Positions 3,882-37,873 of a DNA stretch of 64,000 nt are shown here, piece by piece. The first letter of the stretch is position 1; every line of letters begins with the position of its first letter. This stretch comes from Frondihabitans sucicola (lineage in GTDB: Bacteria; Actinomycetota; Actinomycetes; Actinomycetales; Microbacteriaceae), in the NCBI RefSeq assembly GCF_030296615.1, contig NZ_AP027732.1, positions 2,545,042-2,609,041 of the forward strand. Reading direction: 5' to 3'. The notes under the pieces were generated by a model that saw nothing but the letters and a program-made list of their open reading frames with translations, was not told the origin of the DNA and did not search any database. The position numbers and the translations under genes were made by a program.

Positions 3882-4562
3882 ATGAGCATTTCCGAGGTCG
3901 AGGAGGCGCCGGCTCCCGCGGGTGCGCCGACGCCGTTACGACGCGACGCGCGAGAGCGTCGCGAGCGCCTGATCGCGGCGGCTCGGCAGGAGTTCGCCGC
4001 CAGGGGAGTGGATGCGTCGCTCGAGAGGATCGCGCGCGACGCCGGCGTCGCCATCGGGACGCTGTACCGGCACTTTCCGACACGGGTCGATCTCCTCCTC
4101 GCGGCGTTCGAGCCTCGGCTCCAGGAATTTCTCGACAGCGCGGACGACGCCCTCGGTGTCAGTGACCCGTGGGAGTCGTTCGTCTGCTACCTCGAGAATC
4201 TGTTCAGCGTGCAGGCGGGGGATCGCGGTTTCAACGACTTCCTGTCGCGTCGGTTCCCCGGCAGCGCCGAGACCGAACGGATCCACGACCGGATGTGTCT
4301 CCAGATCGGCGACGTGCTGACCAGGGCGCAGGAGGCCGGAGCGGTTCGCTCGGATATCACCCTGGCCGACATCGTCAACCTCATCTGGTCGAACGGCCGC
4401 ATGATCGACGCCACGAGCCAGGCGGCACCCGAGGCCTGGCGCCGGCACCTCTACCTCATGCTCGACGGCTTTCGGGCGTCGGCTGCCCACACCCTGCCCG
4501 AGCCGCCGATGACGGATGCGCAGCTCTACGACGCCATGGTGCGCCTCAGTCAGGCCGACTGA
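3882..4562 (+). CDS. TetR/AcrR family transcriptional regulator
   Basis: N-terminal HTH RERLIAAARQEFAARGVDASLERIARDAGVAIGTLYRHFPTR; divergent from the reductase operon. Confidence 0.85.
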   Translation: MSISEVEEAPAPAGAPTPLRRDARERRERLIAAARQEFAARGVDASLERIARDAGVAIGTLYRHFPTRVDLLLAAFEPRLQEFLDSADDALGVSDPWESFVCYLENLFSVQAGDRGFNDFLSRRFPGSAETERIHDRMCLQIGDVLTRAQEAGAVRSDITLADIVNLIWSNGRMIDATSQAAPEAWRRHLYLMLDGFRASAAHTLPEPPMTDAQLYDAMVRLSQAD

Positions 4563-4634
4563 CTCGCGTCGCCTCCCCGACGATCCCAGAATTCGTCTTA
4601 CTTGACATAATGTGCATTATCAGCGCTCAAGTGT

Positions 4635-4693
4635 CGGGAATTGCATCTAATGCAGGAACTCCCGCTCAACGACCAGGACAACAAAAAGCCAGG
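4635..4693. repeat. left terminal inverted repeat of the element (contains palindrome TGCATctaATGCA)
   Basis: about 55/59 identity with the reverse complement of 23739-23797. Confidence 0.7.
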
Positions 4694-4768
4694 TCGGTGC
4701 CGTATTCGGCTCCCAGTGAATAACTATCAGGGACGCTTCTCTTGCCGTCAGATCCGCATAGGCGTAGG

Positions 4769-4791
4769 TTTCCTGCATTAGATGCAGGAAA
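4769..4791. promoter_or_regulatory. palindrome TTTCCTGCAT-TAG-ATGCAGGAAA just upstream of the integrase gene; shares the GCATCTAATGCAGGAA core with IR-L (likely recombinase binding site/operator)
   Basis: 10-bp perfect arms seen directly; 7 bp upstream of the int start. Confidence 0.45.
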
Positions 4792-4797
4792 CCACGA

Positions 4798-5937
4798 TTG
4801 GAGAACCGGATGGATGGCGAATTTCCGGGCTTTGTCCCGAAGGTCTTGCTTGATCCTTCTATCGCGTTGTTTCGCGCCGAAGACCGCGTATTCGAGGCGA
4901 TGGTTGATGGTTGGACGTCGGAGATGCTGGCTCGTGGCAATCAGGTGTCAACGATCAAGGATCGCGTGAGCTTGCTCAGGCGGTTCCAGTCGTTTACCAA
5001 TGATTACCCGTGGATGTGGGGTCCAGGCGATATCAACGAGTTCGCGGCCGAGCGACTGTCCGGTGAGCGGCCGATCAAGCCCACAACCCTCCGCACCGAC
5101 TCGAATACGATCGCGATGTTCTGCTCTTATGTGTCTAATCCGGCCTACGGCTGGGTGGCCTTTTGCGAACGGACATTCGACTCAATTCCTTCACAAATCG
5201 TGTTCGAGTGGAACAGCCCGCACCACTCGGCCGACGATGCTGTTCCGACAGGCAAACGAGCTTTTACTAAGCCGGAGCTTCAGCTCATCTTCGACTATGT
5301 TGACGACCTCGCAGACAGTGAATATGCCCGTGGGTCCAAGCGCTGGCCGAACTTGCTCCGTGACTCCAATGCATTCAAGATCTGCTATGCCTACGGCCTT
5401 AGACGTCGGGAACTCACCATGCTCGACACTGTCGATTTCGGACCCAATCCATACGTCCCCGATTACGGCATGTTCGGCGCCCTCACCGTGCGTTGGGCCA
5501 AAGGGGTCAAGGGATCGGGTCCACGACGCCGAACGGTACTGACTGTCCCCGAGTTCGACTGGGTGGTCGAGCTAGCCGACAAGTGGATCAGCTCAGAACG
5601 CCGCGGACGTTTCTCTCACGCCGACGGATCGCTCGCCCTTTGGCCGAGTGAGCGGGGTAACCGCATCTCCCTCGGCACATTAGGCGACGCGTTCACCGCA
5701 GCTCGACGCGCCGTCGGCCTACCCGAAGATCTCGGCCTTCATTGCCTCCGGCACTCCTACGTCACGCACCTGCTGGAGGCGAAATATGACCCGCTGTTCG
5801 TTCAGCAGCAGGTCGGGCACGCCTACGCCTCCACCACGAGTCTCTACACCTCGGTGTCCGACAACTTCAAACAGAGAGCGGTCCAGGAAATGATTGCTGC
5901 ACGCGTTCCAGCCAAGACGGAGACTGCCCATGCCTGA
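4798..5937 (+). CDS. tyrosine-type site-specific recombinase/integrase (catalytically intact)
   Basis: C-terminal box II HCLRHSYVTHLLEAKYDPLFVQQQVGHAYASTTSLYTSV (HxLRH...LGH...Y); TTG at 4798 or ATG at 4810; stop overlaps the next start. Confidence 0.85.
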   Translation: MENRMDGEFPGFVPKVLLDPSIALFRAEDRVFEAMVDGWTSEMLARGNQVSTIKDRVSLLRRFQSFTNDYPWMWGPGDINEFAAERLSGERPIKPTTLRTDSNTIAMFCSYVSNPAYGWVAFCERTFDSIPSQIVFEWNSPHHSADDAVPTGKRAFTKPELQLIFDYVDDLADSEYARGSKRWPNLLRDSNAFKICYAYGLRRRELTMLDTVDFGPNPYVPDYGMFGALTVRWAKGVKGSGPRRRTVLTVPEFDWVVELADKWISSERRGRFSHADGSLALWPSERGNRISLGTLGDAFTAARRAVGLPEDLGLHCLRHSYVTHLLEAKYDPLFVQQQVGHAYASTTSLYTSVSDNFKQRAVQEMIAARVPAKTETAHA

Positions 5938-6283
5938 AATCCGCCGAATCGGCTTCCATTGGAAACTCCGTGCCGTCATGGCCCAGCACAACCTCTGGAA
6001 GTCCACCGACCTCATGCCGCTGCTAAAATCGAGGGGCGTGAACCTCTCCGAAAGTCAGATTTATCGACTCGTCACCGGCTCCCCCGAGCGCATTCCCGCA
6101 CGCACTTTCGCGGTACTCTGCGACATCTTCGACTGCACGCCCAATGACCTCTTCGAACCATTTGTCGAGATGCGGGCCGCCGCGACCGCCAACGCGCCAA
6201 AGGACGTCGAGGATTTGACTTCCACGCCGGGACAGCCGCTAACGCACCGGGTGCGTCTGAGCCGCGTCGAAGACGATGAGTAG
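5930..6283 (+). CDS. XRE-family helix-turn-helix DNA-binding protein
   Basis: ATG overlaps the integrase stop (ATGcctGA); KSTDLMPLLKSRGVNLSESQIYRLVTGSPERIPARTFAVLCDIFDCTPNDLFE = HTH_XRE. Confidence 0.7.
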   Translation: MPEIRRIGFHWKLRAVMAQHNLWKSTDLMPLLKSRGVNLSESQIYRLVTGSPERIPARTFAVLCDIFDCTPNDLFEPFVEMRAAATANAPKDVEDLTSTPGQPLTHRVRLSRVEDDE

Positions 6284-6668
6284 GCCAAAGCAGCCCGAGG
6301 ACCCGGAGCGCTTTCCGCTTGCCTGCGCGCGCTGTCATGAGCATCGGGCCCTGGCAGCTTTTTTCGGGACTGAAGGGAGCGTCTGCGTCAACTGCTACAT
6401 GAAAGCCAAGCGCACCCGTGGGGTCTGCGCCTGTGGGCACGAGGGGGTCCTTCCTGGCATGGTTGGGGGGCAGCCGGCGTGCCGAGCATGCAGCGGTGTA
6501 AAGCTCAACATCGACTGCGTCTCATGCGGAACCGAGGACGAACTCTATTCAGGTGGACGGTGCTGGAACTGCACACTCCGTGAAGCCGTGGATTCCGCCC
6601 TGACGAACCCGTCGACCGGCACAATCTCCCCGCGCTTGTCCCCCTGGCGACGGCACTCAAAGGGATGA
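6276..6668 (+). CDS. cysteine-rich (multi-CxxC, zinc-ribbon-like) protein of unknown function
   Basis: 130 aa with CARCHEH, CVNC, CACGH, CRAC, CVSC, CWNC motifs; overlaps both neighbours by a few nt (operon). Confidence 0.45.
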   Translation: MSRPKQPEDPERFPLACARCHEHRALAAFFGTEGSVCVNCYMKAKRTRGVCACGHEGVLPGMVGGQPACRACSGVKLNIDCVSCGTEDELYSGGRCWNCTLREAVDSALTNPSTGTISPRLSPWRRHSKG

Positions 6669-7747
6669 AGAGGGCAAACAGCGGGCTCACCTGGATTAGA
6701 CAGGATCACGTTCAGGCATTCCTCCGCACCCTCGCCACCTCAGACACGATCACTCAGGAGAGCCTTGATGCCCTCCCAAAAACGAAGACGCGCGAATACG
6801 TCCGCGGCCTCCTTGTCGAGCACGGAATCATCGTCACCCGCGACGACTATCTCGTCCGCTACACCGCGTGGTCCAACGAAGCCGTCGAGCGACTCGTCCA
6901 CGCGCCGGATAAAGCTATCGTGGTCCGCTACGTCCGGTGGCAGCACCTACGGCGCATGCAGCAGATGGACGAGGTGACGATCGGCACATTCCTTCGCTCG
7001 AAGCAGACCGTCACGGTTGCCATCGACTTTCTTAACTGGCTACATCATGAGGGAGTGCTCTTCGCGGACGTCCGTCAAGCGCATCTCGACGAGTGGATTA
7101 ACACTGGACCTTCGACACGAAAGATCGCCAATCGATTCCTTCGTTGGGCTATCAAGACCCGTCTCGTAAAGCCCGACTTGACAATTGCACCGCACCGGCG
7201 TGGCACGGCCGAGCGACTGGATGCTTCGGCTCAAGGAGCCGCCCTTGAACGCGTCGTCCATACCGACGAGCTGGCGCCCCGTGAGCGAATAGCGGCGACG
7301 CTCGTCCTCGTCTTCGGCCAGCAGGTTCGAGACATCGTGACCCTTACCTGGGACCGGGTGCGCATCGAAGACGGTCTCGTCACAATTCGCATGGGCGGGT
7401 TCGACATCGACCTCCCGGCTCCCCTCGACGAGCCATGGCGGCAGCTTGCGGCCCACTCGCCGAACATGCAGACCGCGGCCCACCCGCATAGCTCTTGGGT
7501 CTTCCCCGGGACCAAGCCCGGCTATCACGTCAACCCGAGTCACATGCGGAACCGGCTAAAGCAATACTTCAGCGCACGCGCCGCGCGCCTTGGTACCCTC
7601 CACGAACTCTCCAAACTCGGCCCGATCCCTGTGATCGCCGACGCACTCGGCTATCGGCCGCAAACCATTGAGGCTCACGCAAAAGACTCCGCCTCCGCCT
7701 ACGCCCGCTATGTCGCGTCGATTCGCAGTGAAGACCAGCCAGATTGA
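6665..7747 (+). CDS. tyrosine recombinase-like protein, probably catalytically degenerate
   Basis: N-terminal SAM-like core-binding domain (QAHLDEWI...), catalytic-domain start ...GQQVRDIVTLTWDRVRIEDGLVTIR...DLPAPL, but box II reads HELSKLG...LGYRP...YARY (conserved Arg replaced by Ser, His by Tyr). Confidence 0.55.
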   Translation: MKRANSGLTWIRQDHVQAFLRTLATSDTITQESLDALPKTKTREYVRGLLVEHGIIVTRDDYLVRYTAWSNEAVERLVHAPDKAIVVRYVRWQHLRRMQQMDEVTIGTFLRSKQTVTVAIDFLNWLHHEGVLFADVRQAHLDEWINTGPSTRKIANRFLRWAIKTRLVKPDLTIAPHRRGTAERLDASAQGAALERVVHTDELAPRERIAATLVLVFGQQVRDIVTLTWDRVRIEDGLVTIRMGGFDIDLPAPLDEPWRQLAAHSPNMQTAAHPHSSWVFPGTKPGYHVNPSHMRNRLKQYFSARAARLGTLHELSKLGPIPVIADALGYRPQTIEAHAKDSASAYARYVASIRSEDQPD

Positions 7748-7833
7748 GGGCTTGATTCATGCAGGCTTGTGGATTTCCTCGCGCTGCCTATTTGAATCTC
7801 TCCCTCATCCCGACACCAAGGCTCGGTCGGCTC

Positions 7834-9649
7834 TCAGCTGAGTCCCGCTTCCAGCCGAATACGGGCAAGATCCCTATGCTCGGGTATCCCGGTGATTGAC
7901 CATGGCTCCGGAACGACAAGGTCATTTTTTAGAAGTTCAGAACTATAGATCCGGAACGGGGTTCCATCCATGGGCTCCAGTCTGATATTCATGCCCTTTG
8001 CCGTGCCGCCCAAGAGTCGCCTTCGCACCTCGTCGGCATCCGCGATTTTCATCCTTGGGTGAAAAATGTTTGGTTCGGGTATTAAGACTGGATTGTCCAG
8101 CACGTTGACGCCTGAACCTTCTCCCCGGAAACGCTCCGGTTTAAGATGGCACCTCCCGCGTCCAGCAAGACCATCAGGCCCTCGTCCATTGAGCCGCTGA
8201 GAGTGGCTTTCATCGAAGAATAGTTAGGGATGAGGGCGCATTTTCCTTCCAGCAGCATCCGTGCGATCCGCGTCCAAATACGCTCCGCAGCCTCAGGCAA
8301 CTCCTGCGGAAAAGCGAAGGTCACATCGCCCAACTTCTCGATCACAGACAAGTCCTCGGCATACTCGCTCAATTTTGGGTCAGCCGCTCTTAGGTCTGCC
8401 CCCTGTGGGAGCGCCGCGCTGACCGACTTTCCACTCAGGGTGAGCCGGAGTCGTTGAGCCCGAGGAAGGGTGTCCATAAAGCGAACTACCCGGTTGACGG
8501 CCACGCCGGACCGTCCCACAGCATCAAAGGTCATGTCTGTGGAACCAGAAAGGCTGTCTCGTGGGAAGCGCCAGAACATTGAAAGGACTTCTTCGAAGGA
8601 CACCTCGATAAAGCCGCCTTCCGTGCCGTTCCCCACATCGGTGCTCGTGCCAGTAAGCCCGCCAAGGTGCGTGCCGTCAGCGGCGTATGAGTCGATGCGG
8701 GCTGGTTCACCTTGGTGAGCGTCACGAACGGGGATTACCGAGACTGCATAGCCGCTCTCCGTCCCCGAAAACCAGTCGGCCGGCCCGTCATAGACCAGTG
8801 AATGGACGTTCTGCTCCGGCAAGTCGAGACGCGTGCCCCGTCCGTAGCCGAACACATCTTTCGTCAGTTTTGCCAGTTCCGCATCCTCACGGCCGAACAA
8901 CATGTTGACCGTGATCGACAGCGGTTCCATGTCCGCTGCGTCTTCCCTCTTCGCGTACAATTCCCACCCTGGCAATCCGTCGACGACAGCCAGTCGGCGA
9001 CCCCAGTACAGGCTGAAAGTGTTCTGGTCGGCAATGTACCGAGCTAGCCCGTCGTGGGCCTCTTGAAGAGTTCTAGGTGCTGCATCCTTATGGCCAATCC
9101 TTGAAAGGGCCAAGTCCACCGCGCTGCGCACGCTCCAGTCTTGGACGTCGGGATGTTTGGCGAGGAGTCTGTCCAGCTCAACGGAGCCAAGAATGTGAGT
9201 TCGAATCGAGGTGCCATCGCTCAGCTTCGAAACCCACTTTTGTTCGGCGTCCGTAAACTCTTCTGGCACCACCAAGGTCCAGTCCGGCATGCCCAGGGCT
9301 GTCGCTGTCGTGAACGACTTCTTGATTTGCTTGCGTCGACTGTCACGCCAGCCCCCGAAAAGCCTTCAGGGAAATGCTTCAGTTGAAACACATGGACGAC
9401 TGAACCAGATGTCTTGTCCCGAAAGACGATGTCGATGCCGCCGTCACCGCCGCGGCCGCTGGGTGCCGAAGCGGCGTATCCGAGGGCGTCACCGTCACGA
9501 GTGATAAGCACGTTCACGATTCGCTCGAAGTCCTCGCGGGAAATTGTCCGCCACTGAACTTTTTCGACCACGGACTCTCCCCCATTGCAGCACTGCGTCA
9601 ATCGTATCGGCGCCAACGCACTGACCAGGGACGAGACGAAATGCCTCAC
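7834..9649 (-). CDS. Mrr-like PD-(D/E)xK restriction-endonuclease N-terminal domain fused to a ~450-aa domain of unknown function; two apparent single-base frameshifts (~9354 in a G6/C6 run, ~8106)
   Basis: N-terminus ...SREDFERIVNVLITRDGDALGYAASAPSGRGGDGGIDIVFRDKTSGSVVHVFQLKHF (D-GGIDIV...QLK = Mrr catalytic motif); three successive frames join into one ~600-aa protein if one base is restored at each junction; lower GC than surroundings. Confidence 0.5.
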
Positions 9650-9832
9650 CCTGACGAGGAGGCAGACGCGTCTCCGCGAGATGGAGAACGCTGTTCCGTA
9701 CGTCGCACTGGCGCGATCGCAGCACGTCGCTCAGTTGTCGTTGGCATTTCGTCGCAGCCGGCGATTTGACTCCGCCGCTGTCACCCAAGCGGCGATCCTT
9801 CAAAGCGCATTCTTAGGCGAGGGGCGTCGTTC

Positions 9833-10351
9833 CTAGTTGGTTCCGGTGACGGTGCTGCGGCGTTCGAGGAAGACGTTGTCTCGCCACTGTCCTGCCCACG
9901 GGCCGAAGCTCATCCGCCCAATGCGTTCCCGGATGCCGACCTCTCGGAATCCGTGGGCGGCATGAAGGGCGAGGCTTCCGCGGTTCTCGGGGAAGACCGC
10001 GGATTGAATCATCCAGACTCCCGCTGCTTCGGATGTGGTGATGAATTCCGCCAGGAGCAGGTGGCCAACCCCGGCACCGCGGGCGTTCTTGGAGACATAG
10101 ATGGAGTGCTCGATGACCCCCTGATACACCGGCCGCGACGACACGCTCGACGCGGCCGCCCACCCGACGACGTTGTCCTGCGTGTCCACGGCGACGAGTC
10201 GGAGTCCTCGAATTTTTCCGCCATCGAACTCCTCCCAGGACGGAGGCTTGTCCTGGAAGGTCGCGTTACCCGACGCGATGCCCTCGGCGTAAATCCGTTC
10301 GACGGCAGGCCAGTCGCCCGCCTTCATCGCACGGATCGTCACCTCGGTCAT
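9833..10351 (-). CDS. GNAT family N-acetyltransferase (phosphinothricin acetyltransferase-like)
   Basis: MTEVTIRAMKAGDWPAVERIYAEGIASGNATFQ...RGAGVGHLLL; ATG 10349-10351. Confidence 0.8.
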   Translation of the reverse strand: MTEVTIRAMKAGDWPAVERIYAEGIASGNATFQDKPPSWEEFDGGKIRGLRLVAVDTQDNVVGWAAASSVSSRPVYQGVIEHSIYVSKNARGAGVGHLLLAEFITTSEAAGVWMIQSAVFPENRGSLALHAAHGFREVGIRERIGRMSFGPWAGQWRDNVFLERRSTVTGTN

Positions 10352-10697
10352 GCCGGGTTGAGGGTCCGACTGCTGGCGGTGAGGGCGGCGAAGTCGGCAC
10401 GGTAGTACGCCCATTTGCCGCGCTGTTCGCGGATGGCAAGGCCGGCGTCGACGAGCTGCTTCATGTGATGCGACACCGTGGGCTGCGACAGCCCGACCGG
10501 TGCCGTGAGGTCACAGATGCAGGCTTCCCCGTAGGGCTTGCCGCGATGAGTGACAGGAGCCGCACTCGGGTGGGATCGCCGAGCGCCTTGAACACCTTGG
10601 CGACGTCTTCCGCTGCGGACGCCGTGAGGGCGTCCTCACTGGTCGGGGCGCAGCACGCCGCGTCGGTGGGCGCGAGAAGCGAGGCACTGGTGGTCAT
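10348..10697 (-). CDS. arsR: ArsR/SmtB family metalloregulator (apparent single-base frameshift ~10543)
   Basis: MTTSASLLAPTDAACCAPTSEDALTASAAEDVAKVFKALGDPTRVRLLSLIAA then +1 frame GKPYGEACICDLTAPVGLSQPTVSHHMKQLVDAGLAIREQRGKWAYYRAD; stop overlaps the GNAT start (ATGA). Confidence 0.7.
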
Positions 10698-10721
10698 GGC
10701 CTCATTCTGCCAGTCGCATTG

Positions 10722-10760
10722 ACATCTGTCGATGTATCGAGCACAGTCGATGTATTGATT
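10722..10760. promoter_or_regulatory. repeated 12-13 bp near-palindromes (GTCGATGTATCGA / GTCGATGTATTGA) in the divergent arsR / arsO promoter region; candidate ArsR operator
   Basis: seen directly between starts at 10697 (-) and 10785 (+). Confidence 0.4.
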
Positions 10761-10784
10761 GTTGTCGATCCGAGGAGTTTTCCC

Positions 10785-12101
10785 GTGTCTGATCTTCCCG
10801 TTGTCGTCATCGGCGCCGGCCCGCAGGGCCTTGCCGCTGCCGCCCACCTTCTCGAACGTGGCCTTGACCCCCTGGTACTCGAAGCTGGCGACGGCCCGGC
10901 GGCCGCTGTGAATGAGTGGGGCCACGTCCGGCTGTTTTCGGACTGGTCAGAACTCGTCGACACCACGGCCGGCCGGCTGCTTGAAGGAACCGGATGGACG
11001 GCTCCGGCGAAGGGCTACCCGACCGGAGCGCAGTGGATCAGCCGCTACCTCTCGCCTCTCGCTGAGGCGTTGGGTGACCGGGTGCGGTACGGCACCACCG
11101 TGACTGGTATCGGTCGGCAGGGCCGTGACCGGCTGGTGGATGCGGGCCGAAGCGAGCAGCCCTTCACCGTTCACGTCAACGCCGGCGGGACCGAGGAACG
11201 CATCACCGCTCGTGCTGTCATCGACGCGTCGGGAACCTGGTCGACCCCGAACCCGCTGGGCGCCGACGGTCTCCCCGCCCTCGGCGAGAAGGCAGCGGCC
11301 GCGTTCATCTCCGATCGCATCCCTGACTTCCACGACCATGACCGGTTCGCCGGCAAACACACGGTCGTCGTGGGCAGTGGGCACTCCGCGGCGACCGCGA
11401 TCAACGAACTCACCCGCGTCGCCAAACAGCACCCCGATACCCGCATCACATGGGTCCTTCGTCGAGGTGGCGTTGGGAACACATTCGGTGGCGGCACGGC
11501 CGACGAGCTGCCCGAGCGCGGAGCCCTCGGCGCTCGTGCGCAGAAGTCCGTCGAGGCGGGGATCGTGGATCTCGTCACCGGGTTCCGCGTCGAACGAATC
11601 AACACCACCGACACCGGCGCCGTCCTCATCTCCGAAGACGGACGCGCCCTGCCCGAGGCAGACCTCGTCGTCGCCCTGACCGGGTTCCGACCCGACCTGT
11701 CGTTCCTGTCGGAGGTGCGCCTCGAGCTGGATGCCACGTTGCAGGCACCCATCCGAATCGCGGCGGAGGTCGACCCCAACGTACATAGCTGCGGGTCCGT
11801 CCGAGCCACCGGAGCTGCGGACCTGGCACAACCGGAACAGGATTTCTACCTCGTCGGCGCGAAGTCCTACGGCCGCGCGCCCACGTTCCTGGCGATGACC
11901 GGATACGAGCAGATCCGCAGCGTCGTCGCGGAACTGGCCGGCGACCACGAGGCCGCCGCCCGCATCGACCTCATCCTCCCTGACACCGGCGTGTGTGGCG
12001 GGGCAGGGTTGTTCGACGACCCCACCGGCGCCAGAGGCGGCGCCTGCTGCGCCCCTGCATCGACACTTCTGCAGATCGGCCGTGCCCCCGTCACCGCTTG
12101 A
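10785..12101 (+). CDS. FAD/NAD(P)-binding oxidoreductase (ArsO-like flavin monooxygenase family found in actinobacterial ars clusters)
   Basis: GTG start 8 nt after a GAGGAG RBS; VVVIGAGPQGLAAAAHLLERG dinucleotide-binding motif, second GxGxxA (VVVGSGHSAATAI). Confidence 0.65.
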   Translation: MSDLPVVVIGAGPQGLAAAAHLLERGLDPLVLEAGDGPAAAVNEWGHVRLFSDWSELVDTTAGRLLEGTGWTAPAKGYPTGAQWISRYLSPLAEALGDRVRYGTTVTGIGRQGRDRLVDAGRSEQPFTVHVNAGGTEERITARAVIDASGTWSTPNPLGADGLPALGEKAAAAFISDRIPDFHDHDRFAGKHTVVVGSGHSAATAINELTRVAKQHPDTRITWVLRRGGVGNTFGGGTADELPERGALGARAQKSVEAGIVDLVTGFRVERINTTDTGAVLISEDGRALPEADLVVALTGFRPDLSFLSEVRLELDATLQAPIRIAAEVDPNVHSCGSVRATGAADLAQPEQDFYLVGAKSYGRAPTFLAMTGYEQIRSVVAELAGDHEAAARIDLILPDTGVCGGAGLFDDPTGARGGACCAPASTLLQIGRAPVTA

Positions 12102-12116
12102 GCGAACCAGTCGCCG

Positions 12117-12791
12117 CTAGGCGGGGGCGAGACGGGGCGCAAGTTCCTGGATGCGGTGTTCGAGGTCCGTGAAAGCGGCCTCGAATGCCGCATCCGTGCC
12201 CAGACGGACAGGGTCGGGGATCGACCAGTGCAGCCCGGACGGGACGGAGAGTTCCTCATGGGCGTTGTCGCAGACCGTGACCACGAAGTCATCCGGCGCG
12301 AGAACGTCAGAGAGCATTTGCGGGGTGGCCTCTTGCAGGTTCAGGTGGTGCCGCTTCGCTGCCCGGATAGCGCCCGGTTCGACGCGCTCGGCGGGGTGAG
12401 TTCCCCCGGATGCGGCAGGGATACTGCTGGCGCTGGCCCACAGCGCTGCGGCGAGCTGTGACCGGGCGGAGTTCCCGGTGCAAACGAACACAACCCGGTG
12501 GCCGGCGACCGAGGATGTCGGAGTCAGCCCCGACAAGGAACCTGGGGCGAGGTGGAGATAGCTGCGCCTGCGGTCGCCCTCTGACCGGACCCGAACCAGA
12601 ATGCCCACGCCTTCCAGCACCTTCAGGTGATGCGCCACGAGGTTCGAGGGCATGCCGAGCTGCTGGCTCATGTCGGTCGGGGAGACATCCCCAAGGGTTA
12701 ACAGGTCGACGATCCGTAGGCGTGCCGGATCGGCCAGGGCGGCATGTTTCGCAGCCCGCGCCTCGATCATCTCTGTTAGCTCAGCGTTCAT
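12117..12791 (-). CDS. arsC: ArsR HTH fused to LMW-PTP-type arsenate reductase (ArsR-ArsC fusion)
   Basis: N-terminus RLRIVDLLTLGDVSPTDMSQQLGMPSNLVAHHLKVLEGVGIL (ArsR HTH); C-terminus VVFVCTGNSARSQLAAALW (CX5R P-loop of LMW phosphatase/ArsC). Confidence 0.8.
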   Translation of the reverse strand: MNAELTEMIEARAAKHAALADPARLRIVDLLTLGDVSPTDMSQQLGMPSNLVAHHLKVLEGVGILVRVRSEGDRRRSYLHLAPGSLSGLTPTSSVAGHRVVFVCTGNSARSQLAAALWASASSIPAASGGTHPAERVEPGAIRAAKRHHLNLQEATPQMLSDVLAPDDFVVTVCDNAHEELSVPSGLHWSIPDPVRLGTDAAFEAAFTDLEHRIQELAPRLAPA

Positions 12792-12831
12792 TACCTCAAT
12801 CTTGACTGAGGTACCGTCTTGGCGTCAAGAT

Positions 12832-13587
12832 GTGCAAGTGCCCTTCTTGACCCCGATCCCACGCACCGATCTCCTGCGCCGCCTGCTGGCGGAGCTGCTC
12901 GGGACGGCTCTTCTGGTGACGGTCGTTGTCGGTTCGGGGATCATGGCCCAGCAGCTCAGCCCGCGCGACGTCGGGCTGCAACTGCTGGAGAACAGCCTCG
13001 CTACCGCTTTCGGCCTGACGGTTCTGATCCTGATGCTCGGTCCGATCTCGGGGGCGCACTTCAACCCGGTGGTCACGCTGGCGGACTGGGCTCTTGGCCG
13101 TCGCACCCGCACCGGGCTCCGTTCAGCGATGGTCCTTCCCTACGTTGTCGCGCAGGTCGTTGGGGCGATCCTCGGAGCAGTCCTGGCGAACACCATGTTC
13201 GACACCCGCACGACCATCGCAACCACGCACCGCGCCACTGGCGGGCATCTCCTCGGGGAGATCGTCGCCACGGCAGGGCTGATCCTGGTGATCTTTGCCC
13301 TCGCACGCACCGGCCGCGGGGCCCTGGCTGCTCCTGCGGTCGGGGCGTACATCGGGGCGGCGTATTGGTTCACCAGCTCGACTTCGTTCGCGAACCCTGC
13401 CGTGACCATCGGCCGGATCTTCACCGACACCTTCGCCGGCATCGCCCCCACCTCCGCCCCCGCCTTCATCGGCGTCCAGCTGGTGGGAGCCGCGGTCGGC
13501 TGTGCCCTGCTTCTCGTTCTCTATCCCGACGTCGCCCGGTCCGCCGACGACGTCGTCATCCCGCACCTCGACCAGGCGTCCGCCTGA
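12832..13587 (+). CDS. aquaporin/aquaglyceroporin (MIP family) arsenite channel
   Basis: two NPA boxes (SGAHFNPVVT and SFANPAVT); six TM helices; GTG start after the divergent arsRC start. Confidence 0.8.
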   Translation: MQVPFLTPIPRTDLLRRLLAELLGTALLVTVVVGSGIMAQQLSPRDVGLQLLENSLATAFGLTVLILMLGPISGAHFNPVVTLADWALGRRTRTGLRSAMVLPYVVAQVVGAILGAVLANTMFDTRTTIATTHRATGGHLLGEIVATAGLILVIFALARTGRGALAAPAVGAYIGAAYWFTSSTSFANPAVTIGRIFTDTFAGIAPTSAPAFIGVQLVGAAVGCALLLVLYPDVARSADDVVIPHLDQASA

Positions 13588-13608
13588 CCCGCCCCGAAAG
13601 GCCCTCTC

Positions 13609-14991
13609 ATGCATCTCGTTGCCATCGGCGGATCGGACGCCGGCATCTCCGCCGCCCTCCGCGCCCGCGAACTCGACCCGTCCGTAGACGTGACCGTGGT
13701 CGTCGCGGACGCTTACCCGAACTTCTCCATCTGCGGGATTCCGTACTTCTTCTCCCGCGAAGTGCAGCCCTGGCAGTCCCTCGCTCACCGCACCCATGCC
13801 GACCTCGAAGCGACCGGGATGAACCTCCGGTTGGAGACGTTCGCGACGTCGATCGACGTCGTAGGTCACCGCCTCGCCGTCCGCGCCCTCGACGGCACCG
13901 GATCCCTCATCGCCTACGACGCCCTCATGGTCGGCACCGGGGCGCTGCCCTCCCGCGCCGGCATCGACGGCCTCGACATCCTGGGGCCGGACGACGGGGT
14001 GCACGTCATCCACTCCATGGGCGACACCTTCGCCCTCGACCGGTTCCTCGAGACCCGGAACCCTGAGACCGCGATCATCGTCGGCGCCGGCTACGTGGGC
14101 CTTGAAATGGCGGAAGCGTTCACCGTCCGCGGCATCAAGACGACCCAGATTCAGCGCGGTCCGGAAGTGCTCTCCACCCTCGACCCCGAACTCGGCGCCC
14201 TCGTTCACACTGAACTCACCGACCACGGCGTCACCGTCCTCACGGACACCATCGTGAACCGCATCGACAAAACCGGCGACAGCCTCACCGTCAGCGCCAC
14301 CCACCAGGGCACCCCCGTCACCCACACGGCCGACGTTGTCCTGGTTGTCGTCGGGGTCCGCCCGAACACGGACCTCCTCGAGCGCGCCGGCGCGACGCTT
14401 GGTGCTGGCCGGGCGGTCGTCGTCGACGACACGATGCGGACGGGTCTTCCCGACGTGTTCGCGGCCGGTGACGGGGTCACCACCCACCACCGCCTCCTCG
14501 GCTTGACGTATCTCCCTCTCGGGACGACGGCTCACAAGCAGGGCCGCGTCGCCGGCGAGAACGCCCTCGGTGGCACCGCCCGGTTCGCGGGATCCGTCGG
14601 CACTCAGGTCGTGAAAGTGTTCGACCTCGTCGCCTCCCGGACCGGCCTTCGCGAACACGAAGCCGCCGCTGCCGGGTTCGCCCCCGTCAGCACGACCGCG
14701 ATCGCGGATGACCACAAGAAGTACTACCCGGGCGCGCAACCGATCTCGATCCGCGTCACCGGCGACAGCCGCGACGGCAAACTCCTCGGCGCTCAGCTCG
14801 TCGGCCGTCTTGGCACCGAGACCGCCAAACGCGTCGACACGTACGCCGTCGCCTTGCACGCCGGCCTCACCGTGGAGCAGGTCAGCGAACTCGACCTCTC
14901 CTACACACCACCGCTCGGTTCCCCGTGGGACGCGGTGCAGATCGCCACCCAGGCATGGTCCCGCGAGCACCGCCAGGCGGTGACCGCATGA
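13609..14991 (+). CDS. FAD-dependent pyridine nucleotide-disulfide oxidoreductase (NADH oxidase / CoA-disulfide reductase-like)
   Basis: MHLVAIGGSDAGISAAL...IIVGAGYVGLEMAEAF...AAGDGV; 460 aa two-Rossmann architecture. Confidence 0.75.
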   Translation: MHLVAIGGSDAGISAALRARELDPSVDVTVVVADAYPNFSICGIPYFFSREVQPWQSLAHRTHADLEATGMNLRLETFATSIDVVGHRLAVRALDGTGSLIAYDALMVGTGALPSRAGIDGLDILGPDDGVHVIHSMGDTFALDRFLETRNPETAIIVGAGYVGLEMAEAFTVRGIKTTQIQRGPEVLSTLDPELGALVHTELTDHGVTVLTDTIVNRIDKTGDSLTVSATHQGTPVTHTADVVLVVVGVRPNTDLLERAGATLGAGRAVVVDDTMRTGLPDVFAAGDGVTTHHRLLGLTYLPLGTTAHKQGRVAGENALGGTARFAGSVGTQVVKVFDLVASRTGLREHEAAAAGFAPVSTTAIADDHKKYYPGAQPISIRVTGDSRDGKLLGAQLVGRLGTETAKRVDTYAVALHAGLTVEQVSELDLSYTPPLGSPWDAVQIATQAWSREHRQAVTA

Positions 14992-15380
14992 CCGACAAGC
15001 CCACCGTCTTGTTCATCTGCCAGCACAACGCCGGCCGCTCCCAACTCGGCGCAGCCCTCCTCGAACACCTCGCCGGAAACGACTACACGGTCACCTCAGC
15101 GGGGATCGCGCCCGACAAGACAGTGAACCCGGCCGTCGCGGCGAGTATCGCGGAGCTGGGGATGGACATCAGCCAGCGGGAACCGCGGGCCGTCACCGTC
15201 ACCGACCTCCAAGAGGCCGACGTCGTCGTCCTCATGAAGCCTGGCCTAGTCTTGCCGAGCACGCCCGCGGGACGGGTGTTGGAGTGGTCCTTCCCGAATC
15301 CGGAGAACTGGGACGTGGACTCCGTCCGGCCCTTGAGGGAAGCGGTCGCGGCGCGCATCACCTCCGACCTGTTCGCCTGA
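14988..15380 (+). CDS. arsC: arsenate reductase, LMW protein-tyrosine-phosphatase family
   Basis: MTDKPTVLFICQHNAGRSQLGAALLE (CX5R); ATGA overlap with the upstream gene. Confidence 0.8.
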   Translation: MTDKPTVLFICQHNAGRSQLGAALLEHLAGNDYTVTSAGIAPDKTVNPAVAASIAELGMDISQREPRAVTVTDLQEADVVVLMKPGLVLPSTPAGRVLEWSFPNPENWDVDSVRPLREAVAARITSDLFA

Positions 15381-15400: not shown

Positions 15401-16069
15401 CTAGTCGTCCTCTTCCGCTTCGCGTTCACCGGTCAGCACGGATACGGGAACGGTGCAGCTGTCGCCCTTCCATGCCTCGACGCCTTCTTTGACGGCGAAG
15501 CCGACGACGACGAGGGCTGCGATGGGGTCGGCCCAGGTCCACCCGAACAAGCTGTTGAGCAGGAGCCCGACGAGGACCGCCGCGGACAGGTAGGCGCAGA
15601 TGAGGGTCTGTTTGGAGTCGGCGATCGCGGACGCCGATCCCAGTTCTCGTCCGGTGCGGCGTTCGGCAAGGCTCAGGGCAGGCATGATCAGCAAGCTGAT
15701 GACGGTGAGGACGATGCCGATGGGGCTGTGCTCGGCCTGACGGACGCCTGTTAGCGACAGGGCGGCGTCGATGGTGACGTAGATCGCGAGAGCAAAGAAC
15801 GAAATTGCGATGACGCGGAGGGCGGTCCGCTCCCTGGCCTCGGGATCGCGGGCGGTGAATTGCCAGGCGATTGCCGCGGCGGAGAGGACTTCGACGATGG
15901 AATCTAGGCCGAAGCCGACGAGGGCTGCGGAGGAGGCCATGGTACCGGCGGTGATCGCGACGACCGCCTCGATGGCGTTGTAGGTGATGGTCGCCGCGAC
16001 GATCAGCCGTATCCGGCGGCGTAAGATCCGGGTACGAGGCGGGACAGCGAGGGCTTCGGTGCTGGTCAT
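15401..16069 (-). CDS. cation diffusion facilitator-like membrane protein (short form lacking the cytoplasmic domain)
   Basis: TM protein with LVGFGLDSIVEV, ADSKQT, WADPIAALVV motifs typical of the CDF TM core; ATG overlaps the upstream CDF stop. Confidence 0.6.
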   Translation of the reverse strand: MTSTEALAVPPRTRILRRRIRLIVAATITYNAIEAVVAITAGTMASSAALVGFGLDSIVEVLSAAAIAWQFTARDPEARERTALRVIAISFFALAIYVTIDAALSLTGVRQAEHSPIGIVLTVISLLIMPALSLAERRTGRELGSASAIADSKQTLICAYLSAAVLVGLLLNSLFGWTWADPIAALVVVGFAVKEGVEAWKGDSCTVPVSVLTGEREAEEDD

Positions 16070-16998
16070 GCGTGGTCCGTTCCGGGTTCGTGGGCGGTGT
16101 GGCCGGCGGGTTCGAGTTGGAAGGTGCTGTGCTCGACGTCGAAATGGCCGACCAGGCACGCTTGCAGTTCGTCGAGGACTCGGGGTGCGTGGCCGTCCTG
16201 GAAGCACTCGTCCGTCAGGGTCACGTGCGCTGACAGGGCGGGGAGGTCCGAGGTGACGGTCCACGCGTGGAGGTCGTGGATTGCGAGAACGTGGGCGGGT
16301 TCGAGTAGGTGCCCTCGGATGGCGTCAAGGTCCACACCTTCTGGGGTGCCCTCGAGGAGGATGCGGCCGGAGTCTTTCAGCAGCCCCCACGCCGCATGCA
16401 GCATCAAGACCACAACGATCAGGGAGGCGATGGAGTCGGCGCGGGTGAAGCCGGTGACGAGGATGACGATCCCGGCGACGACGGTGGCGATGAACCCATA
16501 CAGGTCGGTGAGGATGTGCTGGAAGGACCCTTCGACGTTCAGGCTCTGACGGTTGGCTTTCGCTAGCACCCACACGGCGACGAGGTTCACGGCCACTCCG
16601 AGGAGCGCGACGACGAGGACCGGGCCGCCTTCGACCTCGGGTGGGTCGAGGAGGCGTCGGATGGCTTCGACGGCGACGATGCCACTGATGACGACGAGGG
16701 TGACGCCATTCACCGCGGCGGAGAGGATCTCGGCGCGCTTCAGCCCGAATGTCCACCTTGAGCTGCTGGGGCGGGCAGCGAGTCGGATCGCGACGAGCGA
16801 CCCGGCGAGGGCGGCGGCGTCGGTGAGCATGTGACCGGCGTCCGAGAGCAGTGCCAGCGAGCCGGAGATGATGGCGACGATGACCTCGATGAGGAGGAAA
16901 CCGACGATCAGGGCCAGGGCGATGCTGAGGAGCCGGGTGTTCGCGTCGGGGGCGGCCCCGTGGCTGTGTGCTTTGTCGTGCTGGTGGGTGTCGGTCAC
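16066..16998 (-). CDS. cation diffusion facilitator (CDF) family metal efflux transporter (CzcD/ZitB-like)
   Basis: His-rich N-terminus THQHDKAHSHG, LLSDAGHMLTDAAALAGSL, C-terminal cytoplasmic domain; GTG start overlaps the regulator stop (GTGA). Confidence 0.8.
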   Translation of the reverse strand: MTDTHQHDKAHSHGAAPDANTRLLSIALALIVGFLLIEVIVAIISGSLALLSDAGHMLTDAAALAGSLVAIRLAARPSSSRWTFGLKRAEILSAAVNGVTLVVISGIVAVEAIRRLLDPPEVEGGPVLVVALLGVAVNLVAVWVLAKANRQSLNVEGSFQHILTDLYGFIATVVAGIVILVTGFTRADSIASLIVVVLMLHAAWGLLKDSGRILLEGTPEGVDLDAIRGHLLEPAHVLAIHDLHAWTVTSDLPALSAHVTLTDECFQDGHAPRVLDELQACLVGHFDVEHSTFQLEPAGHTAHEPGTDHA

Positions 16999-17400
16999 TG
17001 GTCGGTTCCGGTGGTCTCGGGGTGGATCGCGACCGTGTGACCGGTGTGGGTGAGCCCGAGGTCGAGGAGCATCCGGACGTGGCCGTCGTCGAGGCGGTAG
17101 TACGCCATCCGCCCACGACGTGCGACCGACACCACCCGGTGCGCCCGAAGGAGCCGGAGTGCGTGACTGACAGAGCTTTCGCTCATCGCCGTTGTCGCCG
17201 CGAGATCGCACACACATCTCACCGCCTTCGAGAAGAGACATCAGAAGGCGAAGCCGGCCTGGGTCGCCGAGAAGAGAGAACACGTCCGCCAGCTCGACGA
17301 CGTCTTCCGCGTCGGGCAGGCTGCGTCGAACCAGGTCGACCTTGTCCGGGTCGACCATCTTCAGCTCGCAACTATCGATGCTCGCCAGATCGCTCGCCAT
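16995..17400 (-). CDS. ArsR/SmtB family metalloregulator (NmtR/KmtR/CzrA-like) with a 2-bp frameshift inside a (TG)n run at ~17213
   Basis: DVFSLLGDPGRLRLLMSLLEGGEMCV then CDLAATTAMSESSVSHALRLLRAHRVVSVARRGRMAYYRLDDGHVRMLLDLGLTHTGHTVAIHPETTG; restoring TG in ATGTGTGTG(TG)CGAT joins the frames. Confidence 0.7.
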
Positions 17401-17726: not shown

Positions 17727-17900
17727 ATGCTCCAGCTGTCGATTGAGATCCCTGCTGCCGCGGGCTACGCAATCGGATTCGCCGTCGCAACAGGCATCAT
17801 CGCGACCGCCATCCGTACCGCGTGGCCCGTGCTGAACGACAAGGCTGCACGCCGCGTCGCTCGCATGCACCGGGCGAAAGCCGCTCGCAAGAGCGACTAG
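17727..17900 (+). CDS. small hydrophobic protein (57 aa), hypothetical
   Basis: GGAGG 6 nt upstream of ATG; MLQLSIEIPAAAGYAIGFAVATGIIATAIRTAWPVLNDKAARRVARMHRAKAARKSD (one TM helix + basic tail); below the ORF-track size cutoff. Confidence 0.35.
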   Translation: MLQLSIEIPAAAGYAIGFAVATGIIATAIRTAWPVLNDKAARRVARMHRAKAARKSD

Positions 17901-18070
17901 CTCAAAAAACGCACCCCTCCATCGTTAAGGAGAGCTCTGTCTTCAGGTGTGCAACAAACGACCGTCCACGAGACAGTCACGCAGAGCTGCTCAAGAGTCG
18001 GCGCGTCATGTCCCATGGCCCGTGTCCGCGACCTATGTTCCGTAAGACACGTTCGAGGTACAGTTCTGCC

Positions 18071-18637
18071 ATGGCATCCGTCGGCTACGCCCGCGTCTCC
18101 ACCCAAGAGCAGAACCTCGACGCACAAACGGACGCCCTCGAGGCGGCCGCCTGCGACAAGGTGTTCGTCGAGCATGCCTCCGGGGTTCTCGCGAAACGGC
18201 CCGCCCTGGATGATGCCCTCGACTACCTCCGCGAAGGCGACACTCTAGTCGTCACGAAACTCGACCGACTCGGCCGCTCCGTCCGGAACCTGAAAGAGAT
18301 CGCTAACGGACTCGAGCGCCGCGGCGTTGGCCTCAGAGCCCTGTCGCAGGGCATCGACACGACCACCCCCGGCGGCCGGCTGTTCTTCCACATGCTCGCG
18401 GCCATTGCGGAGTTCGAGCACGACCTCATCGTCGAACGCACGAAGGACGGTTTAGCTGCCGCCCGAGCCCGCGGCCGAAAAGGCGGCGGGCGTTCAAAGA
18501 TGACCGCCACGAAAGCCAAGCAGGCCCGAGCGATGTACGACGAGAAGACCTATACCGTCCAGCAGATTGCTGACACCTTCGGCGTCTCACGCGGCACCAT
18601 CTACCGGCACCTCGAAGAAGACATCAGCTCCATTTAG
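18071..18637 (+). CDS. serine recombinase (resolvase/invertase, Hin/Gin/Pin family)
   Basis: MASVGYARVSTQEQNLDAQTDALE... catalytic Ser in YARVST; C-terminal HTH YTVQQIADTFGVSRGTIYRHL. Confidence 0.85.
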   Translation: MASVGYARVSTQEQNLDAQTDALEAAACDKVFVEHASGVLAKRPALDDALDYLREGDTLVVTKLDRLGRSVRNLKEIANGLERRGVGLRALSQGIDTTTPGGRLFFHMLAAIAEFEHDLIVERTKDGLAAARARGRKGGGRSKMTATKAKQARAMYDEKTYTVQQIADTFGVSRGTIYRHLEEDISSI

Positions 18638-23149: not shown

Positions 23150-23738
23150 ATGTGAGAAGGCCGTTGCACTTTTGTCAGAAGACGCGCCACCTACCGGATT
23201 GCTTCTTCGAGCGAACCGCGGCATGGGTCACGTGCCGCCTCGATACTGAGCGGGTGACGACTCGTGAAGACCTGCGGCCGCCGTGAGTTCGAATTCCACA
23301 ACTAAGCGCCCGCACCCGTAGTTCGGTCAACATACCTACATCCCTGAGTTCAGCCCTCGGAGTCACCGGGCGCTCGGCCTGAGCATCCCACCTCGGCACG
23401 ATTCTCATGGCTTGGGCGTCGTCATCGGACCCCGGCTGTCGTTGCTCGGACGACGGGAACAAAACTAGGAGCGGCGACCGCCGTTGTCGTTCTAAGTAGT
23501 CGCTGACCTGCGCCTATCTGTCGACAGCGGACCTACTCCGCCTGCTACTCAAAGTCCTCTTCGAATGGTGGTTCATCAATCCCATTGCGGCCCTCGTCCT
23601 CGTCTTCTTCGGCGTCCGCGAAAAAGTCGATGCCCGAAGGACGATGCCTGCGCCACGTTCGTAGGCATGCTCCTACGAAAAGTAAACGTTGACTTCATTC
23701 CTGCCCAAGGTTCTGCTTCCTTAGTCCAAGACTTCCCG

Positions 23739-23797
23739 GCCTGGCTTTTTGTTGTCCTGGTCGTTGAGCGCGACTCCCTGAATTAGATGCAACTCCC
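23739..23797. repeat. right terminal inverted repeat of the element
   Basis: reverse complement matches 4635-4693. Confidence 0.7.
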
Positions 23798-24205
23798 GGC
23801 TCCCGAACAGCGGCTCCTGCCAGTATTTCGGGCGATCCCGAGAGGGGTCGATTGGACGGAACCGGTGGCAAGGCTGCCGACGCTGACGGCCGTCGAAGGC
23901 TTGAGCGCGACTCCGGTGTTCGCCGACGCGGGCGAAGCGCCGGTGATGAGTGCTCCGACGAGCCCGCCGACGACGATGAGAGCGATGGCAATGTAGGGCG
24001 CGGTGCGGGGCCGTGTGTCATCCTGCGAGGAAACACCTCCGGTTCGTCGATTCTGCAGGTTGTAGACGACGGACGCGGCCATCAGCGCCAGACCGATCCC
24101 CCACAGCAGAATTGCAAGCCCCGAAAAGGCTGGGACGAACGACAGTGAAATGGCGCCGAGGGGCAGCACGGCCAAGGCGGCACTGCGTGAACGAATGGAC
24201 TGCAT
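23783..24205 (-). CDS. small membrane protein (3-4 TM); last codons and stop lie inside IR-R
   Basis: AAGGAAGG RBS then ATG; MQSIRSRSAALAVLPLGAISLSFVPAFSGLAILLWGIGLALMAASVV... Confidence 0.5.
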   Translation of the reverse strand: MQSIRSRSAALAVLPLGAISLSFVPAFSGLAILLWGIGLALMAASVVYNLQNRRTGGVSSQDDTRPRTAPYIAIALIVVGGLVGALITGASPASANTGVALKPSTAVSVGSLATGSVQSTPLGIARNTGRSRCSGAGSCI

Positions 24206-27110: not shown

Positions 27111-28259
27111 CTAGACGGCGGCCGGCGTGGTGGCCGCGGGGGCCGTCTCGGTCGGCTCGCCCTCGACGATGTCGTCGATCGTGACGACCGGCTCGTGCTG
27201 CTTGTAGACGACCCGCGACTGGTAGAGGAACCGCAGCGAGAAGCCGATCACGATCAGCCCGGCCTGGACCAGCACGCTGTGGAGGTTCGTGTTCTCGACG
27301 ATCACCCAGAGGGCGAAGGTGCGGATCGCCGACTCGGTGCCGTTGAACGCGAACGTGTGCCACCAGCGCTTCCAGACGCCGCGGGCGCCGGCCTTCAGGT
27401 CGTTGAAGATGAAGCGCTCCTGGAGCAGGAAGTTGCCGATGATCGTGACGACCGCGGCGATGCACGCGGCCGCGAGGTAGCCGACGCCGAACTGCTGCAG
27501 GCCCCAGAGGATGACGAGGTTGGCGACGGCACCGAGTGCGCCGATGGCCGCGAAGCCCGAGATGCGGCCGAACTTGAGGTCGAAGAGCTGACGGCCGAGG
27601 GCGATGCCCTGCTTCATGTCGGCTTTCGACGTGCCGGCGAGCCGGGCGTCGAAGACGAGCGGCACCTCGCGGATCTCGAGGGGCTGGCGAGCCAGGATCT
27701 CGAGGAGGATCTTGAAGCCGCGCGGGTGGAGACCGTCGAGCTTGACGGAGTCGCGGCGCACGCCGAAGAAGCCGGACATGGGGTCGGTGGTGCCGTGGAG
27801 GCGGCTCGGGAACAGCGCCTTCGTCACCTTGATGGAGAGCTGAGACACCGCTCGGCGGATGCCGCCGGAGAGGCCGTCGCTGGAGCCGCCGTCGACGTGG
27901 CGCGAGGCGACGACGACGTCGGCCTCGGTGGCACGGCCCTGCGCGAGGACCGAGGGGATGGTCTCGGGGCGGTGCTGGAGGTCGCCGTCCATGACGACGG
28001 CCCACTCGCCCGTGGCCTGGCGGAGGCCCGCGATGACGGCTCCGGAGAGACCGCCGACGGCGACGTCTCGGTGGAGAAGCCGCACCGGGATCTCGTGCTC
28101 GGTGGCGACCTGGGTCACGACGTCGGGCGTGTCGTCGGTGGAGTCGTCGACGAAGAGGATCTCTGCATCGGTGCCCGCGACCGCCTTCTCGATCCGGGTG
28201 ACGAGTTCTGCCACGTTCGGTGCTTCGTTGAAGGTCGGGATGACGACGGAAAGCTCCAT
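27111..28259 (-). CDS. family 2 glycosyltransferase with C-terminal GtrA-like membrane domain (polyprenol-phosphate mannose/glucose synthase-like)
   Basis: MELSVVIPTFNEAPNV...FVDDSTDDT...VMDGDLQH; C-terminal 4 TM helices. Confidence 0.8.
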   Translation of the reverse strand: MELSVVIPTFNEAPNVAELVTRIEKAVAGTDAEILFVDDSTDDTPDVVTQVATEHEIPVRLLHRDVAVGGLSGAVIAGLRQATGEWAVVMDGDLQHRPETIPSVLAQGRATEADVVVASRHVDGGSSDGLSGGIRRAVSQLSIKVTKALFPSRLHGTTDPMSGFFGVRRDSVKLDGLHPRGFKILLEILARQPLEIREVPLVFDARLAGTSKADMKQGIALGRQLFDLKFGRISGFAAIGALGAVANLVILWGLQQFGVGYLAAACIAAVVTIIGNFLLQERFIFNDLKAGARGVWKRWWHTFAFNGTESAIRTFALWVIVENTNLHSVLVQAGLIVIGFSLRFLYQSRVVYKQHEPVVTIDDIVEGEPTETAPAATTPAAV

Positions 28260-37807: not shown

Positions 37808-37873
37808 GCCTTCGATTCTGTCACGCCCCGTCTCGGGCCGTGGGAGACCCGAGACGAGGAGCGACGTCGAACG

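Follow-up and report, generated by a model that had tools for sequence, protein, structure and literature searches.

What do three adjacent open reading frames (ORFs) on the minus strand of a stretch of Frondihabitans sucicola DNA (contig NZ_AP027732.1; 64,000 nucleotides, the whole of which is called the window below) represent, what would their product do, and is the gene really broken? Read together and judged by sequence, the region 7834–9571 is one gene for a protein of 579 amino acids (aa), broken by two single-base deletions. The gene is one of a large family without a name, most members of which occur in Actinomycetota; this family has no Pfam, NCBIfam or PADLOC entry, and no description of it was found in the literature searched. 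Its product is read here, with modest confidence, as a self-contained defence or conflict nuclease, probably directed against phages or plasmids.

Reconstruction of the split gene

The three ORFs lie in successive frames at 9221–9649 (142 aa), 8082–9290 (402 aa) and 7834–8103 (89 aa). The first of them carries the sequence GRGGDGGIDIV...VHVFQLKHFPEGFSG, with the motif GRGGDGGIDIV...VFQLK, and its frame then enters unrelated sequence. The first junction is found at 9352–9356, where one base is missing from a run of five C on the plus strand, that is, five G on the coding strand (GGC TTT TCG GGG GCT GGC). One G added to this run gives E-G-F-S-G-G-W-R-D-S-R-R-K-Q-I-K-K-S, in which EGFSGGW fits the family consensus EGFSGG[WF]. 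The second shift is confined to 8085–8130, between the stop codon at 8082–8084 and about position 8130, and its most likely site is the run of four C at 8123–8126 (four G on the coding strand), again with one base missing. The restored base yields ...LNRSVSGGEGSGVNVLDNPV..., which links the last two frames, and the repaired junction reads ...SGGEGSGVNVLD... opposite ...DGGGGTNGVHILD... of a homologue. The exact site of this second junction is uncertain because it falls in a variable glycine-rich loop.

The probable start codon is the GTG at 9569–9571. The homologues begin with MxxxVDW, which aligns with VVEKVQW of the window gene, and a Shine-Dalgarno-like sequence, GGGGGAGAG, lies at 9577–9585, 5 nucleotides (nt) upstream. 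For these two reasons, the true start is almost certainly the GTG at 9571 and not the upstream position 9649, from which a version of 605 aa would be counted. With the two bases restored, the whole gene (7834–9571) comprises 579 codons and a stop, as delimited from the ORFs, the six-frame translation and the alignment of homologues. The first-pass annotation had described a single gene split into three ORFs by two apparent −1 frameshifts, and this description stands. Its placement of the second junction exactly at 8106 does not, and the extent to 9649 that it implied has to be shortened to the GTG.

Over its whole length the repaired protein can be aligned with intact homologues of 579–582 aa, and therefore both breaks are taken as single missing bases. 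Intact homologues include WP_151485956.1 from Microbacterium maritypicum and WP_400467633.1 from Curtobacterium. The alignment is collinear over both junctions: QLKHFPEGFSGGW pairs with QLKHFPEGFSSGW, and ILNRSVSGGEG-SGVNVLD of the repaired protein pairs with ILNASADGGGGTNGVHILD of the homologue. The repaired frame has full length and no in-frame stops. Of the 72 alignment columns in which 80% or more of the other sequences agree, it matches 68, which equals the median of the intact homologues. The frame is thus disrupted relative to intact homologues, and the sequence points to no decay of the gene beyond the two missing bases. As written, the copy encodes fragments, namely 73 residues of the nuclease domain followed by an out-of-frame tail, and later pieces that have no proper start. 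Unless the assembly is wrong at both missing bases, this copy has no function. Programmed ribosomal frameshifting was considered and rejected: the homologues are unsplit, the split copies found elsewhere break at other positions, and a canonical slippery heptamer is present at neither of the two sites.

The choice between mutation and assembly error is close to even, with a true pseudogene slightly favoured. That the frameshifts are errors of the assembly, so that the organism holds an intact and possibly active gene, has somewhat less than an even chance. Each break consists of one missing base, and a short G run is the site of the first and also the likeliest site of the second, which cannot be placed exactly. 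The repaired protein shows no other damage, as the conserved columns indicate, and the source is an apparently single-contig assembly, presumably made from long reads, which are prone to homopolymer deletions. Moreover, a Ski2/HelY-like helicase gene of the window (35286–37873, minus strand) is split near 37064 by one missing base, in the same direction. Its DEAD domain lies in 37067–37873 (minus strand), with a stop codon at 37064–37066, and its Helicase_C, MTR4-like stalk and DSHCT domains lie in another frame (35286–37682, minus strand). This third shift bears on the quality of the assembly.

Against assembly errors stands the number of breaks, two in one gene of 1.7 kb and only one among the other, partly checked genes of the window. 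Those genes were surveyed by a composition-based frame scan, too noisy alone, together with Pfam spot checks of adjacent-frame ORF pairs; most of the pairs checked were separate ordinary genes, and only the helicase gene was clearly split. The homopolymer runs are also short (4–5 bases), and nuclease genes on mobile elements are often truly inactivated. Furthermore, homologues in other assemblies, many of which have contig names in the style of short-read assemblers, are frameshifted too: 6 of about 55 genomic copies (about 11%; L004, L022, L035, L039, L054 and L058) are split over two frames, at differing positions. Such copies suggest either recurrent inactivation or sequencing errors in those assemblies.

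An unnamed family of two-domain proteins

The comparison of the repaired protein with 5.8 billion proteins returned 45 clusters, almost all of 575–600 aa and all annotated as hypothetical. The six best homologues (P0001–P0006) share 53–57% identity with it over 94–96% of the query, and the named sources of homologues include Curtobacterium, Microbacterium, Arthrobacter, Glutamicibacter and Pseudarthrobacter. A profile of the C-terminal part, run alone against 1.84 billion cluster representatives (clusters at 50% identity), gave 1,801 matches at E ≤ 1e-3, 955 at E ≤ 1e-10 and 363 at E ≤ 1e-30. Among the best 150 of these 1,801, almost every protein is 560–610 aa long, with the C-terminal match starting at about residue 165–175, and the shorter ones look like fragments. 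This near-uniform length and match start lead to the conclusion that the N-terminal domain and the C-terminal module form an almost obligatory pair. The few longer members have N-terminal extensions ahead of the same Mrr-like domain or, in one case, an added caspase-like segment. In this one, P0185 (707 aa), the caspase-like segment (LIIDSCFSG) is N-terminal and is accompanied by a degenerate Mrr-like domain, both ahead of the same C-terminal module; the effector part may thus now and then be exchanged or supplemented.

The scan of one genome per species, 185,579 species-representative genomes in all, confirmed at least 55 loci across Actinomycetota and in one metagenome-assembled genome of Bryobacter. 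The genera among these loci include Streptomyces, Nocardia, Rhodococcus, Mycobacterium, Tsukamurella, Arthrobacter, Microbacterium, Curtobacterium, Rathayibacter and Cellulomonas. The family is not phage-borne: the 2.9 million viral contigs scanned contained no relative of it.

The N-terminal domain (9189–9571, minus strand; residues 1–128), which the first frameshift interrupts, is a Mrr-like nuclease domain of the PD-(D/Q)xK type. Its putative catalytic residues are D47, Q63 and K65, accompanied by an invariant GRGGDxGxD loop, and the pattern D...QxK is the signature typical of Mrr-type PD-(D/E)xK enzymes. The 45 homologues show no variation at G39, G41, G42, D43, G45, D47 or K65, and at least 90% of them keep Q63; the window copy has D47, Q63 and K65. 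The only Pfam match in the repaired protein is Mrr_cat (PF04471), at 22.7–22.8 bits against a cut-off of 21, over residues 34–140 of the 605-aa version and thus across the first frameshift. The catalytic signature that the first-pass annotation had placed at the N-terminus is accordingly present, conserved in the family and backed by a Pfam score above the cut-off.

The predicted model also contains the restriction-endonuclease-like alpha-beta core, so that this fold and the motif D...(E/Q)xK, and with them all testable features of the PD-(D/E)xK/Mrr_cat superfamily, are found in the domain. The comparison of the nuclease domain with known structures gave values of 10.1 for AF1548, 9.9 for Avs4 bound to the phage portal, 9.8 for LlaBIII (type ISP), 9.1 for both FokI and EcoT38I, 8.9 for AspBHI and 8.6 for MspJI. 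AF1548 (PDB 1y88) is listed together with the Mrr/PF04471 enzymes as a near known relative of this domain. The Foldseek search of the PDB with the full model gave the same picture, with matches confined to the N-terminal domain and none at E ≤ 1e-3. The domain is basic (median isoelectric point, pI, about 9.2), and its mean pairwise identity within the family is 47%. By sequence and model, residues 1–128 are a divergent nuclease domain of the Mrr-type PD-(D/Q)xK kind, in which the catalytic residues are kept and DNA cleavage is putative.

The nuclease domain is followed by a helical linker (9018–9188, minus strand; residues 129–185), delimited by the predicted local distance difference test (pLDDT) values and the secondary structure of the AlphaFold2 (AF2) model, with low confidence at about residues 150–170. 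The remaining region (7834–9017, minus strand; residues 186–579), interrupted by the second frameshift, is a beta-rich and acidic C-terminal module of about 400 residues, which AF2 models with very high confidence. When the repaired protein was scanned with Pfam, NCBIfam and PADLOC, this module had no match. The search of PDB sequences with the 45-sequence profile gave only chance matches to haemoglobin, at E of about 0.3, and the C-terminal model, searched alone against PDB folds, found no relative and no SRA, PUA or winged-helix fold. The statement that the last 450 or so residues hold no recognisable motif holds against Pfam, NCBIfam, PADLOC, PDB sequences and PDB folds, and the structure prediction that had been advised for them gives a confident model without a fold relative in the PDB. 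The module resembles no ordinary restriction-system subunit in the libraries searched.

Such a module differs from the nuclease domain in its conservation and charge. Gly, Pro, Trp and Ala account for most of its conserved positions, and the only conserved charged residues are K208, D407 and R431/R435, a pattern that looks structural rather than catalytic. The C-terminal region is acidic (median pI 4.8–5.1): domain C1 is acidic in 45 of 45 homologues, and all sub-regions are acidic by median. It also diverges faster than the N-terminal domain, with a mean pairwise identity of 25–30% against 47%.

The proposed defence role and its alternatives

The fusion of a nuclease effector with a sensor domain recurs among bacterial immune proteins. 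An example of such a design is Avs4 (PDB 8dgf), which has an N-terminal Mrr-like nuclease effector comparable to the N-terminal domain described here. Avs4 is a protein of about 1,500 aa, with a STAND ATPase and a TPR-like sensor, the latter of which recognises the phage portal protein; the window protein has 579 aa, no nucleoside triphosphatase (NTPase) domain in Pfam or NCBIfam, hence no central STAND domain of the kind that defines Avs proteins, and a C-terminal module without a PDB match. The similarity to Avs4 lies in the nuclease domain, since it does not recur when the C-terminal model is searched alone. LlaBIII (type ISP), FokI, MspJI and AspBHI join their nucleases to helicase, methyltransferase or DNA-recognition domains, none of which is present in the window protein. 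Weak similarity to LmuA of Lamassu with a Mrr-type effector (E 0.035) is limited to the N-terminal domain, and the adjacent LmuB, an SMC-like ATPase, that a Lamassu system requires is not among the neighbours, none of which is conserved over the roughly 55 loci. Among the PADLOC candidates, PDC-M58A (5e-4) and PDC-S73 (7.5e-3) are similar in the N-terminal nuclease domain only.

The genomic neighbourhoods of the homologues vary widely. Clustering of all the ORFs that lie up to 6 kb from the gene in the roughly 55 loci revealed no conserved neighbour gene. The commonest neighbour is a protein of about 200 aa, found at variable positions in nine loci, of which the member in L004 is annotated as a resolvase; in L023 and L040 a resolvase lies immediately upstream of the gene. 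The two nearest ORFs on each side in about 40 genomes (139 ORFs) gave counts that are qualitative and have no matched genomic background: Resolvase in five, Schlafen/AlbA_2 in four, N6_Mtase, DDE transposase and AAA_21 in three each, and YhcG/DUF1016, AbiJ, ResIII and Eco57I in two each. The PADLOC models GajA (of Gabija), Old, mad2/mad3 and PDC-S02 were also matched strongly among the neighbour ORFs, and restriction-modification genes belong to the frequent neighbours as well. Such a variable defence-island and mobilome setting is typical of immune genes, the enrichment being qualitative and without a matched background.

Individual loci illustrate this variety. In Microbacterium maritypicum (L005, 6261–9739) the homologue lies right downstream of ApeA (ApeA_NTD1 and HEPN_Apea) and an unannotated ORF of about 555–610 aa, which has no Pfam match; the locus may be a small defence island with a further uncharacterised gene. 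In a metagenome-derived contig the homologue is found among two resolvases and Fic, ORC/Cdc6-like, Lsr2 and excisionase-type helix-turn-helix (HTH) genes. In Curtobacterium it is located between ordinary metabolic genes and small uncharacterised ORFs.

The favoured reading, held to be slightly more likely than not, is that of a self-contained defence or conflict nuclease carried by mobile islands, in which a C-terminal sensor gates a Mrr-like nuclease. The C-terminal module would act as a non-catalytic sensor or regulator that keeps the basic nuclease domain inactive. Its trigger would most likely be an invader protein or another non-DNA ligand, and upon binding, the released nuclease would degrade DNA, resulting in restriction or abortive infection. 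Such logic resembles the effector-sensor design of Avs4 without the NTPase. The conserved basic nuclease, the flexible linker, the fast-evolving acidic C-terminal module, the missing partner, the island location and the frequent loss by frameshift all fit a self-contained conflict nuclease; we infer from them both the gating mechanism and the defence role. The proposal of the first-pass annotation, a single-gene defence or type IV restriction system, is thus retained in its first half, given the missing partner, the defence and mobilome neighbours and the frameshifts in about one in nine copies, and its second half appears less likely.

Several points weigh against a gated defence nuclease. 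First, the Mrr_cat score is marginal across the family, with only 8 of the 45 members reaching E ≤ 0.01, so that it is mainly the predicted fold and the motif that support the nuclease assignment. Second, every family member is named 'hypothetical protein' at its source, and no experimental report on any member was found. Third, the search of the defence database that had been recommended for the repaired protein found no system: PADLOC-DB v2 gave no full-length model, only weak matches within residues 25–171 or so, in the nuclease domain. Fourth, the proposed sensor role of the C-terminal module draws on negative evidence, namely its lack of catalytic-looking conservation and its acidic charge, and on analogy. 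In addition, the enrichment of defence genes is qualitative, and the window copy says nothing on activity in the host strain because it is disrupted.

A bolder form of the proposal is that the family represents a new single-protein immune system of Actinomycetota, whose C-terminal module, with a new fold, would sense an invader molecule and release the Mrr-type nuclease; the protein would then be a compact, NTPase-free counterpart of Avs4-like sensors. This form is possible, with the balance tilted against it. Most catalogued defence systems come from Proteobacteria and Firmicutes. If the protein does serve in defence, a compact new sensor fold would be added to the known set, and a tractable single-gene system would become available for phage work in Streptomyces, Mycobacterium and Corynebacterium. 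The window copy itself is of limited value for this, because it is broken or mis-assembled.

The other explanations of the protein are weaker. It is unlikely that the protein is a type IV, or modification-dependent, restriction endonuclease, in which the C-terminal module would read modified DNA and the Mrr-like domain would cut it. Two points favour such an enzyme: Mrr, which is of type IV, has Mrr_cat as its catalytic domain, and the gene stands alone, without a methyltransferase partner. However, the C-terminal region is acidic, with C1 so in 45 of 45 homologues, and its model has no SRA, PUA or winged-helix fold. The order of domains also differs: in Mrr of E. coli the winged-helix DNA-binding domain comes first and the nuclease is C-terminal, whereas here the nuclease is N-terminal and the acidic module follows. 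No Pfam match to Mrr_N was found in the window protein or the family members, so that the arrangement of Mrr_N followed by Mrr_cat, which characterises Mrr-type enzymes of type IV, is absent.

Less probable still is an accessory or addiction function of the island, as a nuclease for transfer or integration or as a toxin that stabilises the element. The position of the gene directly after the recombinase module and within the inverted repeats agrees with such a function, as does the rank of resolvase as the commonest neighbour family elsewhere (five to nine loci, depending on the count). Against it, no recombinase or other partner is conserved, the neighbours differ in almost every genome, some copies lie among ordinary chromosomal genes (L001), and in the window the recombinase genes are retained while the nuclease gene is broken. 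A housekeeping nuclease of DNA repair or recombination is very improbable, given the limited spread of the family over the species-representative genomes (at least 55 confirmed loci in 185,579), the foreign GC content and island location, and the frequent disruption and variable context.

The island that carries the gene

The self-contained conflict nuclease proposed above would be carried by mobile islands, and the window gene sits on a horizontally acquired island. The low-GC stretch extends over about 4.5–24.4 kb, with a guanine plus cytosine (GC) content of 0.55–0.65 against 0.67–0.72 in the flanks, and returns to about 0.70 from about position 24500. The patch in which the gene sits has a GC content of 0.58–0.60, which bears out the lower-GC patch noted at first sight. 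Imperfect inverted repeats of about 63 nt bracket the whole island of about 19 kb: the left copy lies at 4635–4697 (31-nt exact core 4663–4693) and the right copy, its reverse complement, at 23736–23798 (exact core 23740–23770), both found by alignment of the ends. No obvious target-site duplication was seen at the inverted-repeat ends of the island. The tyrosine recombinases and long terminal inverted repeats recall, only loosely and by analogy, the recombinase-in-trio elements. No near-identical element turned up in a megablast search of 4500–12500 against plasmids, in which the only match was one of 353 nt at 76% identity.

The recombinase-type genes occupy 4798–7747, and the nuclease gene follows right after them, as the first-pass annotation had described. 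The module comprises a tyrosine recombinase (4798–5937), an HTH protein (5894–6283), a Cys-rich protein and a recombinase-like protein (6665–7747), whose gene is convergent with the nuclease gene. An 18-nt motif containing a palindrome, TTGCATCTAATGCAGGAA, is located at 4641–4658 and, inverted, at 4770–4787, just upstream of the recombinase gene that starts at 4798; it may be a binding site of a recombinase or repressor.

On the other side of the nuclease gene lies an arsenic-resistance cluster (9833–15380). This arsenic and metal cargo includes a GNAT protein (ArsN-like), an ArsR-like ORF, a flavoprotein oxidoreductase and a fusion of ArsR with a low-molecular-weight phosphatase (LMWP), followed in the list by an aquaglyceroporin of the major intrinsic protein (MIP) family, a thioredoxin-reductase-like protein and an ArsC of the LMWP type. 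Two cation-efflux ORFs of the cation diffusion facilitator (CDF) type (15401–16264 and 16066–17400) have 199 nt in common, and each of the two matches the Pfam family Cation_efflux. A resolvase is encoded at 17822–18637, and the further ORFs of the island include a metallophosphoesterase and are mostly without a Pfam match. Elsewhere in the window, the ORF at 27111–28259 has 100% identity with a protein of Frondihabitans sucicola whose annotation is dolichol monophosphate mannose synthase.

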